A DNA stretch of 63,075 bases, filler included, from Octopus bimaculoides (GCF_001194135.2; 9 parts of 8 records of this genome joined end to end with filler, not necessarily neighbours in it), one strand, 5' to 3'; numbered from the whole stretch's first letter, positions 917 through 50,960 are shown. The notes: generated by a model from the sequence alone, not told the origin. Numbers and translations: made by a program.

Positions 917-1027
917 TGTACACCCTGATGAACTTCGATAGAAGGTAATTAAAATGCAAAATTATATATTCATATATGTTTTGTAATTTTAATTTTGTTT
1001 ATGAAGCGAAACAATTGTAGGTGAATA
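917..1027 (+). ncRNA. Hammerhead ribozyme-like motif (type I, family H1) in a Penelope-like pLTR fragment
   Basis: CACC(921-924)-CTGATGA(925-931)-aCTTCG...long AT-rich imperfect hairpin...tGAAGc-GAAAC(1008-1012)-AATT-GTA(1017-1019)-GGTG(1020-1023). Helix I pairs, helix III is palindromic (ACAATTGT), and base pair 10.1-11.1 is an A.C mismatch. Confidence 0.6.
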
Positions 1028-1248
1028 TGTTAATTAATTAATAAATTAATTTGGCTACATTAGGTCTATCTGTTTTCTAACTCGATAACAATGTTTGATA
1101 TTTTACGATATTTTATATACTTTATTCATTGAAGAAATATCTCTTCAAAATAGAACATATTAAACCAGTGTATCTTGGATAAAAATATCCCTATAAGAGG
1201 TCTAAATATCCTCACAGTTATATATATATATATATGTATATAAAAATA

Positions 1249-2475
1249 CTGGGTGCGTAAGATATTTGAGGACAGATTTATGTTTATAAAAAAAAACAGA
1301 TATATAATAACAGATAGTATCTTTATTTATCAAAAGATGCTATAGGATAAAAATAAACCTTCTTTTCTTTTATGTTATTCAATAAAGCCTGTTTCAGCTT
1401 CAACAACTGCTTCTATATGAGATCTAACTTATCTACATGCTCGAATCAAGTGGTCCTGGTTCATTTTGGATATTACTCTGGCAGCTTTCAAAGAATCTTT
1501 GGTGCTATGGGAGTGTTCATTGACTTCTCTTTCAACAACGCTCCATATGTAATACTCCAATGGATTGCGATCTGGGGAATTAGGAGGCCAAATGTTAGGG
1601 TTTATGTGATCATGAAAAATTTCAGTCATCCATTCCTGTGTTAGTAGAGCCATGTATAACAGTGCAATCTTATTGAAACACATATGGCGTTCCATTGTAT
1701 ACACTGTCTATCCAGGGCTTGATAATTATTTCCAGGACCTTAATGTAGGCGGCAGAGTAGACTCTAAGGTCTTGTGGAAAGAAATAAGGAGGAATCACAT
1801 GTCCTTCATTACTGACAGTTGCAGGAAATTTTGTATGCATAACACTTGGAACTTCAGAAGGGTCTGCACATAACCATCTGTCATTTCTACTGTTAACTTT
1901 GTGATCTTGGTCGAAGTTTTTCTCGTTTAAGAAAAACCAAATCAAATCTTCTGCTGGATTTTTCAGTTTTTTTAAGTCTTTTAGATCTGATGTAGTGATT
2001 TTCATTTGCTTTTTCTGACAAATTGACCTTTCCTTATCATATAAGACTTATATCTGATGTTTTCGTGGACAACATTTCTGAGTATTCCTTCTGACACATG
2101 GAGATTTATTGCAACTGACCTTATGGACTTCCTGGGATCGTAATCAATGGTCTGTTGAACTTGATAGATAAATTCAGGTGTTTTGATGATTTCAGAGCGT
2201 TTAGAATGCTTTGATACTGGTGATACATGTCCATCTTCAGTCTCTAGCTCCTTACAAATTTTGAAGACGAAAGATCTGGCAACTTTTATAAAAATCGAGA
2301 TATTTCTTAATCGCCATGCTCAGCAACTCCAACCACAATAACGGCATGCCTCTTTATTTCTTGAGTAAGCTGAGGGTTTGCCATTATTATTCTCGGTAAA
2401 CAAAGATTACACAGAGTAAACAAAAAAATGTTGCAATGATCCCCAAAAGGTATGTCCTCAAATACTATACGCACC

Positions 2476-2478
<3 letters not shown>
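1249..2478 (-). mobile_element. Tc1/mariner DNA transposon, maT/DD37-type, defective transposase
   Basis: Imperfect TIRs C(T/A)GGGTGCGTA...TATTTGAGGACA at both ends, each flanked by TA. Minus-strand remnants: ATG at 2384 (MANPQLTQEIKRHAVIV), xNEKNFDQD, VMHTKFPA, YVFQ*D, WPPNSPDRNPLEYYIW. 37 codons lie between the 2nd and 3rd catalytic positions after restoring a 2-nt deletion. Stops and frameshifts present. Confidence 0.92.

Positions 2479-2551
<73 letters not shown>
2479..2551. repeat. (TA)n microsatellite
   Basis: Seen directly; abuts the mariner TIR. Confidence 0.98.
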
Positions 2552-2554
<3 letters not shown>

Positions 2555-3090
2555 CACACAACAGTCCTCTTTCACACGGCTTTGGTTGGTCCGAGGCTAT
2601 AGTTGAAGTCCCACGAGGTGGGACTTAATACGGAATTATGTGGTTGGGCTGCAGTTGAATATTTTAATGCCATGGACAGAATTGGACTGAATGGTATTGC
2701 TTCGTGTCGAAGTCATAATCATTGCTAATAGAGCATCTGATGACGGGTTGTGAGTGTCCATTTACATATATGCATGTGTATATATGTATACAGGTGCAAA
2801 CAAAAGTAAGCACATCAATGCAAAACAAGGTGGAAAAAATAGTAATCGAATACCAAGGTAGAGTATTATGTTATTTATTAAGTCGAAAAAAAATCTTCAC
2901 AAATTCCGACGAGCGGTAATGTGAAACTGAGTAACAGATTGTGAAGAGTATTTTCTGTTATATGTAAGTGTGTGTGTGTGAGTGTGTGTATACAAGTGCG
3001 TATTATAGATATATGTGTTTATGTCTGTGTAAATAGGAACATGTTTATCCGTGTATATGCATATATATATATACACCCACATATGTTTCT

Positions 3091-3322
3091 TATTTCTTTA
3101 TTACCCACAAGGGGCTAAACATAGAGAGGACAAGCAAGGACAGACAAAGGGACTAAGTCGATTACATCGACCCCAATGCGTAACTGGTACTTAATTTATC
3201 GACCCCGAAAACATGAAAGGCAAAGTCGACCTCGGCGGATTTTGAACTCAGAACGTAAAGACAGACGAAATACCGCTAAGGATTTCGCCCGGCGTGCTAA
3301 CGTTTCTGCCAGCTCACCGCCT
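3091..3322 (-). mobile_element. tRNA-derived SINE family A, tail type A (LINE-like tail)
   Basis: Head aggcggtgagctggcagaaacgttagc, B-box-like gagttcaaa, central ctttgcctttcat..tcggggtcgataaattaagtaccag, tail ...gtttagccccttgtgggtaataaagaaata. About 20 related copies in the window. Confidence 0.9.
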
Positions 3323-48635: not shown

Positions 48636-48675
48636 TGTTTCCGACGAAGAGCTCCGTTTGAAACGTCATATTCTC
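48636..48675 (+). ncRNA. Degenerate hammerhead-like motif related to H2
   Basis: tgttt-CCGACGA-A-GAGC-tcc-GTTT-GAAAC-GTC-atatt. The downstream cccgagcgtc..taata is shared with the 17106-17255 repeat. Confidence 0.4.
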
Positions 48676-49172
48676 TCTCTTTCCTTTCCCGAGCGTCTAA
48701 TAACACAATCTGTATCACGTCCTCACGTTGTTGTTTTTTGTTGTTGTTTNNNNNNNNNNNNNNNNNNNNNNNNNNNNNNNNNNNNNNNNNNNNNNNNNNN
48801 NNNNNNNNNNNNNNNNNNNNNNNNNNNNNNNNNNNNNNNNNNNNNNNNNNNNNNNNNNNNNNNNNNNNNNNNNNNNNNNNNNNNNNNNNNNNNNNNNNNN
48901 NNNNNNNNNNNNNNNNNNNNNNNNNNNNNNNNNNNNNNNNNNNNNAAACAACCATGTGTGTATATAAACAAATTTACATTTGTTTATTTTTAGAAGTGCC
49001 GAATGTGTATCGTACGATAGAGACAAGAAAGTGATATTTTCGAACGCAGATAAAACAGCAGTAAAATTAGGCAATATTCCCCCTACCATTGGTATCATGC
49101 CAAGAGAAATCACTCAACAGTCATCAAACCTGCTACATGGAATGCTGGGGTTGTTTTCAATTTGAAAACACT

Positions 49173-49346
49173 GCCCTCTACCTGAACGGGACGCCGGTCC
49201 GTCGCAGGTAGATCACATTTACAGCTGAGTGGATTGAGGCAACGCGAAATAAAGTATTTTGTTCAAAAACACAACACACCGCTCGATCTGGAAATTGAAT
49301 CCACGAACTTATGATCGTAAGAGCAACACCCTAACCACGCGCCTTC
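49173..49346 (-). mobile_element. tRNA-derived SINE with CORE-like and V-like segments
   Basis: Reverse complement: gtggttagggtgttg...gtggattcaatttcc (A and B boxes), tttgaacaaaatacttta (CORE-like), cctgcgacggaccggcgtcccgttcagg (V-like). Confidence 0.6.
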
Positions 49347-50684
49347 AATTTTGCATAACAGGAACCGTGTAAATGAATTCCAGGTTGAAATTGAAATGTC
49401 TGATTTCCTTTTTGGATTAAATCATGTATAGAATTTGAACTCACATTGAGACGAAGACACTGATGTCAATTCAAGCAGCAAAAATGTCTTTAATGAATGG
49501 GGAAAGGATAAATGAAATCATTAAACGAGTTTAGAACAATGAAAACTGAAGAATCAGTTGATATGGAAGGCAGAGATATTCCATGTTCGTCATAGAGTCA
49601 GCATTAGCAAAGAAACAAAGATCTATAGAAAACTGAGAGCGGAATTAGGGAAGGAACATTTCCGCTGACAGTATGAGATCATTATGGCATGTGTATTGTA
49701 AGCGGTGGAGTCTTTTATCGACCAATTCTTTGATTAAGCGAGTTAAAAGAAGTATTCAAGACTGGAACCATTGCTTCTAAAGCCGATCAACAAAGAAAAT
49801 ATCTCATCAGGAATCAATTTTATTAAGAAAAGATACGACGCCGATCACATCGGCATTAATTCTTTGATAACGCAATTTCCGACATTTGAAGTCCCGATCT
49901 GACAGATTCATGTTTGTTGTTTGCTTGGCATTGTAGACCATCTGATTGAACGAAGAAAAAAGCAGCCGATGGCAAATACCTAATTTCAGAGATTTGTAGA
50001 ATTTGCCAATTTTTACTTGTAATTCCTGCAACATCTGTAACGATCGAGCGAATATTTTTCTCGAACAAAACGGATTAAAGATACGTCTTCTTCACTCAAA
50101 CAGTGACACGAGAGAAATTAAATTCTCTGGTTTTACTTTCGGATCACGAAGAATAGACAGACAAAATAAACATAATTGTAGCAGCTACGGAATTCAATTC
50201 TCTAAATGAGAAGACAGAAAAAGAATTTCGGCAGAGTCTGATTAATTTGACAATAAATTGAGTTGAATAATAAAGTTTGATAATAACGAATGTTTTTCAA
50301 ATATACAATAACGATAGTTTAGTCAATATTATGCAAACAGACGTCGTGAAATAGCACAGGTTTCGGTTGCAGAAAAATGATGTAATTTTCTTTTTTATTT
50401 CCGCAGCTGCACTTACGGGTATTTCATTTGTTTTTTTGTTTTTTAATTAACCCTCTTCGACCTGGGCCCCTGCAACTAACTTTACCTTCCGCCTGGGTTC
50501 CCGAGCATAAAAATAAATAGTTGTATGTAAAGCTCAAGAGTAACGATTGCCGGGAGACTAATGAACAGAATCACAAAAAGAATAAAGTTCAAGAGAATAA
50601 CAATAACATACAGTGTAAAGAGAGGGGTTGCTCAGTGCCTAAAACATCAAGCAAAGAATATAATTTGCGATCGTGATGGCCACC

Positions 50685-50739
50685 ACGAAGATTCCGAGTT
50701 CGATTCCAGGCAGTGACCTGGATAATAATAATAATAACG

Positions 50740-50796
<57 letters not shown>

Positions 50797-50960
50797 TCGA
50801 AAACCCAAGTTCGAAATTTCCCCAAAACACCTGATGAAGGCTGGAGGGTACATCAGCCGAAATGTTGTGTTAACAACAGATAAGATGAGGACAAATATCC
50901 GTCAAATGTAAATAATGTAAATAATGTACATAATTCCTCATCTCTTAAATATAGAACTGA
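50685..50960 (+). mobile_element. H3 unit: tRNA-like 3' half, (AAT)n, hammerhead (50826-50871) and tail
   Basis: ccgagttcgattccaggcagtgacctg-(ATA)n-acatcga..aacccaagttcgaaatttcccc-AACAC-CTGATGA-A-GGCTG..CAGCC-GAAAt-GTT-GTGTT...catctcttaaatatagaactg. Confidence 0.85.

Follow-up and report, generated by a model that had tools for sequence, protein, structure and literature searches.

Minimal type I hammerhead ribozymes (min-HHRs) are known from the pseudo-long terminal repeats (pLTRs) of metazoan Penelope-like elements (PLEs). They are defined by a CUGANGA core with one base added, a closing G-C pair, GAAA, a palindromic stretch and UH (PMC4209133; here and below, papers are cited from excerpts), and longer helix III palindromes also appear in Fig. 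S3 of that work. Cleavage by these motifs is modest: monomers are uncut and dimers are cut at a low level (PMC4209133), and a review describes very low rates even for dimers (PMC6765202). A PLE hammerhead was found to need its protein to cut, and mutants inserted unimpaired in vitro (PMC11167929). The role of PLE hammerheads is described as an open question (PMC8557442). Here, we analyzed 63,075 nucleotides of Octopus bimaculoides DNA (GCF_001194135.2; nine parts of eight genome records joined with filler, hereafter the window), in which a sequence-only reading had listed ten hammerhead motifs, assigned here to repeat families H1 to H5. These motifs are real, mostly decayed copies of the minimal hammerhead form of Penelope-type elements. 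We think it likely, with a probability of about 0.7, that they are hammerheads of the minimal type I form, carried by dispersed retroelements that are non-coding and were copied by the PLE reverse transcriptase (RT)/GIY-YIG protein, and that one family, H3, is a PLE-dependent short interspersed element (SINE).

Minimal hammerheads in the window

All ten motifs were found where they had been placed; two of them, the H2 copy at 34487 and the H4 copy at 26580, lie on the minus strand, which had gone unmentioned, and the remaining eight on the plus strand. With a min-HHR descriptor that demands a palindromic helix III, and with the chance level taken from 60 local dinucleotide shuffles of the window, there were 4 core-perfect matches versus 0.067 per shuffled window (maximum of 1 in 60), and 8 matches with at most one core mismatch versus 0.67 per shuffle (maximum of 4). 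Because this descriptor itself demanded the palindrome, the scan was repeated with helix III free (2 to 40 nt), the core given as CUG[A/U]NGA (U6 was permitted since H2 was already known) and 200 shuffles. Six matches were obtained and all six were palindromic, compared to 1.2 matches of any kind (maximum of 5) and 0.075 palindromic matches (maximum of 2) per shuffle; the six represent three families (H2, H3 and H5) and so are not six independent events. The claim that helix III is always self-complementary is thus upheld among unconstrained matches, and match rates are well above those of shuffled sequence, equality with which had been proposed as a check. The families had also been said to differ in their flanks, and BLAST joins copies inside families and finds nothing shared across them beyond the core.

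Most copies are damaged. Only H3b (45606) agrees with the published consensus at every position, and the other nine of the ten copies depart from it; among the families, H3 alone follows it closely. Because of helix or core defects, H1, H2c, H4a, H4b and H5a fail both stricter scans; H1, H4a and H4b pass the looser one, and H2c and H5a pass none of the three. The core CUGANGA...GAAA-N-UH is present in H1, H3a to H3c, H4a, H5a and an additional copy, H5b, with one core change each in H2a and H2b (A6U), H2c (U4C) and H4b (A15.1U). The extra nucleotide after A9, together with G10.1-C11.1, is found in H2a, H2b, H3b and H3c and is absent in H1 and H4; the closing pair is G-U in H3a and, in H5, G-C without the extra base. 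The list of ten, each of which stands, had missed H5b, two arms of H3 insertions and two doubtful single-copy candidates. No hammerhead family was among the best 150 of 249 Rfam matches for the whole window, the top of which is microsatellite-driven microRNA noise, and 45380-45720, with 10 matches, likewise gave none. The window includes 6,865 N bases and is otherwise animal-type DNA, rich in microsatellites and repeats.

A tRNA-headed hammerhead repeat

H3 is a short, non-coding, dispersed repeat of about 300 bp, with three insertions in the window. Downstream of a tRNA-like RNA polymerase III (Pol III) head come (AAT)n, some 45 nt more, the min-HHR, a 3′ body and an optional tail of about 33 nt. 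The head, on which the sequence-only reading was silent, is a 72-nt tRNA-like segment (45435..45506, minus strand) with a Pol III A box and B box by pattern, and it aligns over its full length with the Rfam tRNA model (18.7 bits, E 0.21). ARAGORN called 0 tRNA genes, the head included. The head belongs to the H3b insertion (45314..45712), which has arms on both strands. The minus arm, not previously listed, consists of head, (AAT)n and body and is interrupted by an assembly gap that cuts it at C3 (45316); the plus arm begins in the last head bases and continues through (AAT)n into the intact hammerhead at 45606-45651 (H17 at 45646). Both arms carry head sequence and share a 9-nt deletion and changes in (AAT)n; therefore the head and (AAT)n lay on the copied RNA, likely one RNA.

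The other two insertions have related structures. H3a (23031..23324) consists of head-to-head arms joined at a CAT microhomology. Its minus arm (C3 at 23143), again not previously listed, has a 16-nt deletion in helix II and carries the tail of about 33 nt; its plus arm, with the hammerhead at 23224-23269 and the G-U at 10.1-11.1, is without a tail. The insertion is bordered by a 9-bp A+T-rich direct repeat, ATTATTATA, at 23018 and 23325. H3c (50688..50959, plus strand) comprises the 3′ half of the head, (AAT)n, the hammerhead at 50826-50871 with an AUGU helix III, the body and the tail; its head portion is 88% identical to the H3b head over 33 bp and stands in the same order relative to the body. 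Overall, the tail is found on two of the four H3 arms with a visible 3′ end, and no TTTT terminator is found in the H3 body. Inverted head-to-head pairs with 5′-truncated arms make up two of the three H3 insertions, where a short microhomology joins the arms, and both hammerhead-bearing H4 loci; they were not seen for H1, H2 or H5. An inverted 5′-truncated copy and a one-sided tail of 30 to 40 bp are described traits of PLE insertions (PMC8557442); the tail has been traced to two internal RT start sites, and the endonuclease prefers ATT and A+T-rich sites (PMC11167929).

Outside the window, H3 is present in 20 of 24 listed sequencing runs, from 14 studies and with 5 organism labels; the runs consist of contigs, which cannot show RNA ends. 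Contigs were fitted at 80% likeness in four runs (13,051, 37,178, 14,094 and 2,717 H3 contigs). Summed depth over single-contig depth is of the order of 10^5 for H3 and 10^4-10^5 for H2, a ratio that is not copy number. The junction between (AAT)n and the body is identical in the loose contig ends of all four runs, and the tail is seen downstream. Core variation is mostly at the unconstrained N7 (U in 81-88% across the four runs); G12, which lies in a CpG, is the one other core site listed as varying by at least 3% in the three large runs. Also frequent are CpG decay, which affects G12 and the two helix III bases among others (6-31%), and changes at two sites of loop II and in the flanks; a variant at 45650 (35% in run X17) breaks the fourth helix I pair, without compensation. 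The pattern is suggestive of a master element with an intact ribozyme whose copies decay neutrally, which is short of proof by covariation. Summed H3 depth changes across the cut site by about +75% in run X1 and by +15-23% in the three large runs, although contig depth shows neither ends nor levels.

Two features of particular runs deserve mention. At six sites in 45612-45676 of H3b, A>G or T>C changes reach 3.4-20.8% in X1, a run guessed to be RNA, versus 0.04-1.1% in run X19; the two share an organism label but are different samples, with 56-75 contigs per site and the sites chosen partly from X1. Such a pattern resembles A-to-I editing on the two strands, which a head-to-head layout would favor. 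Given this excess and the occurrence of H3 in 14 runs guessed, though not recorded, to be RNA, the copies are probably transcribed. In X17, which has another organism label, the H3 3′ end is connected back to the body in contigs, from 45699 to 45577 (depths of 792 and 213), and there may be head-to-tail H3 units of about 124 nt with a hammerhead in that organism.

The A6U family, predicted cleavage and the remaining copies

The H2 family carries a change in the core itself, the family-wide extent of which had been overlooked. The H2a element (17036..17262, plus strand) has its hammerhead at 17136-17172 (H17 at 17167), with the core CUGUUGA (A6U), an extra A, a 4-bp helix II and an ACGU helix III; its 3′ end adjoins (TA)n, at which H2b also terminates. 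H2b (34390..34554, minus strand; hammerhead at 34487-34523) is 99.4% identical to H2a and is 5′-truncated 36 nt upstream of C3. A degenerate relative, H2c (48636..48672, plus strand), is 66% identical over 79 bp, with A6 kept, a U4C change and a broken helix I. In X19 (label A), 1,474 H2 contigs were found, 692 of them at least 99% alike, and 46, 72 and 18 diverged ones came from three runs with other labels; H2 is therefore young and mostly lineage limited. The A6U change is family-wide in the X19 contigs, where no variant at 4% or more is listed for position 6; variation in the motif there is confined to H17, where C>U reaches 13% and either base is allowed, and to loop II, with an insertion of 1 nt. 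An alternative register (UUGAAGA, U3-G8) was rejected, as helices I and II then fail when inspected by eye. A6 is found in all of the 44 of 56 rows examined in Fig. S3 of PMC4209133, and the excerpt of PMC3088659 reports a natural A6C hammerhead of low activity and no A6U, although A6U may already be among the hammerhead variants of Lunse et al. 2017.

In monomer folds, H2 and H3 form no helix III pair at all; a 4-nt helix III cannot be closed in a monomer, and so cutting would be possible only as a dimer. When the hammerhead dimer is forced, helix I also pairs between the two molecules, and dimers are thus family specific; cross-family dimers were excluded on this ground. For H1 and H5a, the hammerhead dimer is at most about 1 kcal/mol less stable than the best dimer fold. 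In the lowest-energy fold of H2, U6 allows mispairing between the core and the GAAAC strand. All hammerhead-bearing copies in the window begin upstream of the motif and extend past the cut site; the template was thus likely uncut RNA, and H2 cleavage is probably weak or dispensable.

The remaining families are less well preserved. H1 (917..1027, plus strand; C3 at 925, H17 at 1019) has a palindromic 8-nt helix III and lacks G10.1, and BLAST finds no second copy in the window. Its helix II (932-1007) folds into a 76-nt rod (-16.8 kcal/mol alone), far longer than any among the 44 of 56 Fig. S3 rows examined in PMC4209133. The H4a insertion (26555..26828, both strands) has a minus-strand hammerhead at 26580-26638 (C3 at 26624, H17 at 26592), with an ACUCGAGU helix III and a weak helix II, which sits head-to-head with a 5′-truncated plus-strand arm; the arm junction, 26640-26655, is a perfect 16-nt palindrome. 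In the H4b complex (43090..43653, both strands), inverted and short 3′-end copies (43090-43347) precede a plus-strand copy with its hammerhead at 43440-43498 (C3 at 43454). Both H4 motifs have two mismatches closing helix II.

H5a (40281..40383, plus strand) has its hammerhead at 40301-40351 (C3 at 40309, H17 at 40343), with an AAUCGAUU helix III and a broken helix I; directly downstream lies an element with long terminal inverted repeats (40384-40688) that resembles a miniature inverted-repeat transposable element (MITE). The added copy, H5b (10707..10757, minus strand; C3 at 10749, H17 at 10715), is 83% alike over 88 bp and has one helix III mismatch. Of the two single-copy candidates, H6 (19404..19485, plus strand, at 19409), with the core CUGGAGA (A6G), a near-palindromic helix III and a 53-nt helix II, may be a chance match; H7 (41553..41601, minus strand, at 41596), which is A+T-rich and has a G8U core mismatch, is likely one. 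H1, H2, H4 and H5 may be either truncated PLE ends or dedicated non-autonomous elements.

Other elements were also seen. A Pfam search of 267 frames gave a DDE_3 fragment, a Pif1 fragment and three sub-threshold matches, and no host gene. The DDE_3 match (1432-1707, E 3e-4) belongs to a broken Tc1/mariner transposase at 1432-2320 (minus strand), and a frame at 37008-37298 was read as Tc1/mariner-like, with no Pfam match. The Pif1 helicase 2B domain fragment (4833-4997, E 1.8e-11) is probably a Helitron remnant. A separate family of short repeats, which numbers more than 12 copies with identities of 70-91% (3085-3322, 9193-9416, 11616-11850, 19584-19822, 22440-22880, 24393-24616, 62651-63075 and others), outnumbers every hammerhead family in the window, and no hammerhead was found in it. 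There is a second MITE-like element with long terminal inverted repeats at 33120-33383. Nine pairs of 44-N gaps with 12 bases between them (for example, 4207-4250 and 4263-4306) are probably an assembly artifact.

Mobilization, rival explanations and known systems

We imagine that the RNA would be made by Pol III, in the case of H3, or by read-through transcription; the PLE protein would then bind the 3′ part of this RNA and nick A+T-rich DNA, and reverse transcription would prime at one of two internal sites, and this would explain why the tail is optional. An inverted pair could arise when one RNA is primed twice. Where helix III has 4 nt, as in H2 and H3, cutting would need a dimer within the family and would probably be slow and assisted by the protein. 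The ribozyme would then probably be a weak or dispensable passenger, and a family with a fixed A6U, such as H2, could therefore amplify. One can envision a bolder version, to which we give even odds: H3 would be a major SINE of several related species that parasitizes a PLE and not a long interspersed element (LINE), with a tRNA-derived Pol III promoter, an RNA ending in the PLE pLTR and a dimer-only hammerhead acting at most as a concentration-dependent brake. In this version, H2 would be a young family with fixed A6U, representing either a working core variant or evidence that PLE-type mobilization in vivo needs the fold, not the cut.

Several observations weigh against PLE-driven copying and against a tRNA-headed SINE. 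No PLE RT or GIY-YIG fragment was found in any of the 267 open frames (Pfam; at least 48 amino acids, non-low-complexity), a scan blind to N bases, including the gaps adjoining H2a, H2b, H3b and H4b. The search, which covered the window only, gave neither an autonomous partner nor a 3′ end in common with one. Target-site duplication was seen at one of eight spans tested (H3a), where it is of low complexity, and the other seven were unconvincing; H1 and H5 have neither the inverted layout nor the tail, the test for which covered H3 arms only. The tRNA match of the H3 head falls under the Rfam gathering score (18.7 versus 29 bits), and the link between head and hammerhead comes from two window insertions only, as run contigs break within (AAT)n. 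As for the ribozyme, the H3b hammerhead dimer is predicted at -24.3 kcal/mol versus -34.8 for the best dimer fold, and the H2 hammerhead dimer at -10.9 versus -24.1, with helix I unformed. Paired positions hold one of nine frequent non-CpG H3 variants, and that one is uncompensated; this scarcity is only suggestive.

The most serious competitor, which we consider unlikely, is that all of the families, H3 included, are 5′-truncated pLTR ends of autonomous PLEs, the tRNA-like head being either a separate SINE whose (AAT)n is a PLE target or a sequence captured once. Most animal min-HHRs are indeed single motifs on truncated PLEs (PMC4209133), and the PLE endonuclease favors A+T-rich ATT sites (PMC11167929). 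With no head seen for H1, H2, H4 and H5, such truncation fits these as well as any account, and an H3 body without a TTTT terminator is consistent with it. H3 itself is harder to accommodate: head and (AAT)n are doubled in both H3b arms with shared private changes, a second insertion (50688) repeats the head-body order, and from run to run the junction of (AAT)n with the body stays the same, while PLEs are 5′-truncated at variable points. The chance occurrence of such motifs in repeat-rich, A+T-rich DNA seems hardly credible. One-mismatch shuffles (0.67, maximum of 4) are enough to produce the candidate at 41596(-) and perhaps that at 19409(+), but the core-perfect and palindromic excesses given above refute chance for H2, H3 and H5, and variation falls at N7, H17 and loop II.

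We find it improbable that the families are retrozymes of the kind without long terminal repeats (non-LTR), that is, hammerheads repeated in tandem, with transcripts that are cleaved to unit length and made circular. Animal retrozymes have been proposed to stem from PLE pLTRs (bioRxiv 10.64898/2026.07.22.740005), and the X17 contigs joining the H3 3′ end to the body at about 124 nt are of the kind expected; that joint, however, makes up less than 0.1% of the summed depth of a run whose kind is not on record. In the window there is no same-strand tandem, paired copies lie on opposite strands, and the closest same-strand H3 copies are 5.2 kb apart. As circular RNA needs same-strand tandems (PMC7229834; bioRxiv 10.64898/2026.07.22.740005), the circular RNAs suggested by the sequence-only reading are unsupported. 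Slightly less probable still is that the host keeps these hammerheads for cutting intronic or nascent transcripts, also suggested by that reading. Probable transcription of H3, with its editing-like signal in X1, could be taken in its favor, but nine of the ten listed copies depart from the consensus, CpG decay runs through G12 and helix III, no locus-level conservation has been shown, and no host exon was found in the 267 frames scanned with Pfam, which misses short exons. We therefore retain only part of the initial proposal: PLE-type min-HHRs on dispersed non-coding copies, with PLE architecture at H3 and H4, stand, and circular RNA and host cutting are unsupported in the window. Efficient cleavage as dimers is unsupported as well, given low published cleavage of dimers and none of monomers (PMC4209133) and the need for a protein (PMC11167929).

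Dense min-HHRs in animal repeats are already known, and a Pol III head followed by a hammerhead has a precedent in Sm-alpha. In the literature searched, from which repeat databases lay apart, we found neither a PLE-dependent tRNA SINE nor a family-wide A6U described, and three H3 sequence motifs did not occur in the text searched. The main text of a 2026 octopus repeat annotation, as excerpted, is without the words ribozyme or hammerhead (PMC13282606). H3 may already be cataloged as a SINE in Repbase, Dfam or SINEBase.

SINEs are normally assigned to LINE partners. If our interpretation is correct, a high-copy tRNA-headed SINE with a PLE footprint widens this rule, and some of the unclassified SINEs, a large fraction in such genomes, would be reclassified. 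H3, with its canonical core, and H2, which is A6U, young and abundant, would also form a natural pair for asking whether cleavage matters for mobility.

The closest described system is the min-HHRs of metazoan PLE pLTRs (PMC4209133). They share with the window families the core, the extra nucleotide after A9, the G-C closing pair, the palindromic loop-less helix III, a short helix I and a U-rich upstream flank, and they likewise occur as several unrelated families per genome, mostly as single dispersed copies. They differ in that no cephalopod is among the 44 of 56 Fig. S3 rows examined and no tRNA head is described in the excerpt. Insertions of endonuclease-bearing PLEs (PMC8557442, PMC11167929) resemble H3 in their inverted truncated copy, optional tail of 30 to 40 bp and A+T-rich or microsatellite targets; unlike them, H3 has a Pol III head, and the window has no RT or endonuclease open reading frame. 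Metazoan non-LTR retrozymes (PMC7229834; bioRxiv 10.64898/2026.07.22.740005) are also non-coding, carry a type I hammerhead and have a proposed PLE origin, but they are defined by tandem hammerhead units yielding circular RNA (PMC7229834), a tandem that the window lacks. Finally, the SINE-like Schistosoma repeats Sm-alpha and Sj-alpha (PMC6765202, PMC8490949) are, like H3, short and non-coding, with a type I hammerhead downstream of a Pol III-type promoter. Sm-alpha is reported to occur in tandem, its units being freed by an active hammerhead (PMC6765202, PMC8490949), whereas H3 is dispersed and combines a loop-less min-HHR with inverted pairs and a PLE-like tail.

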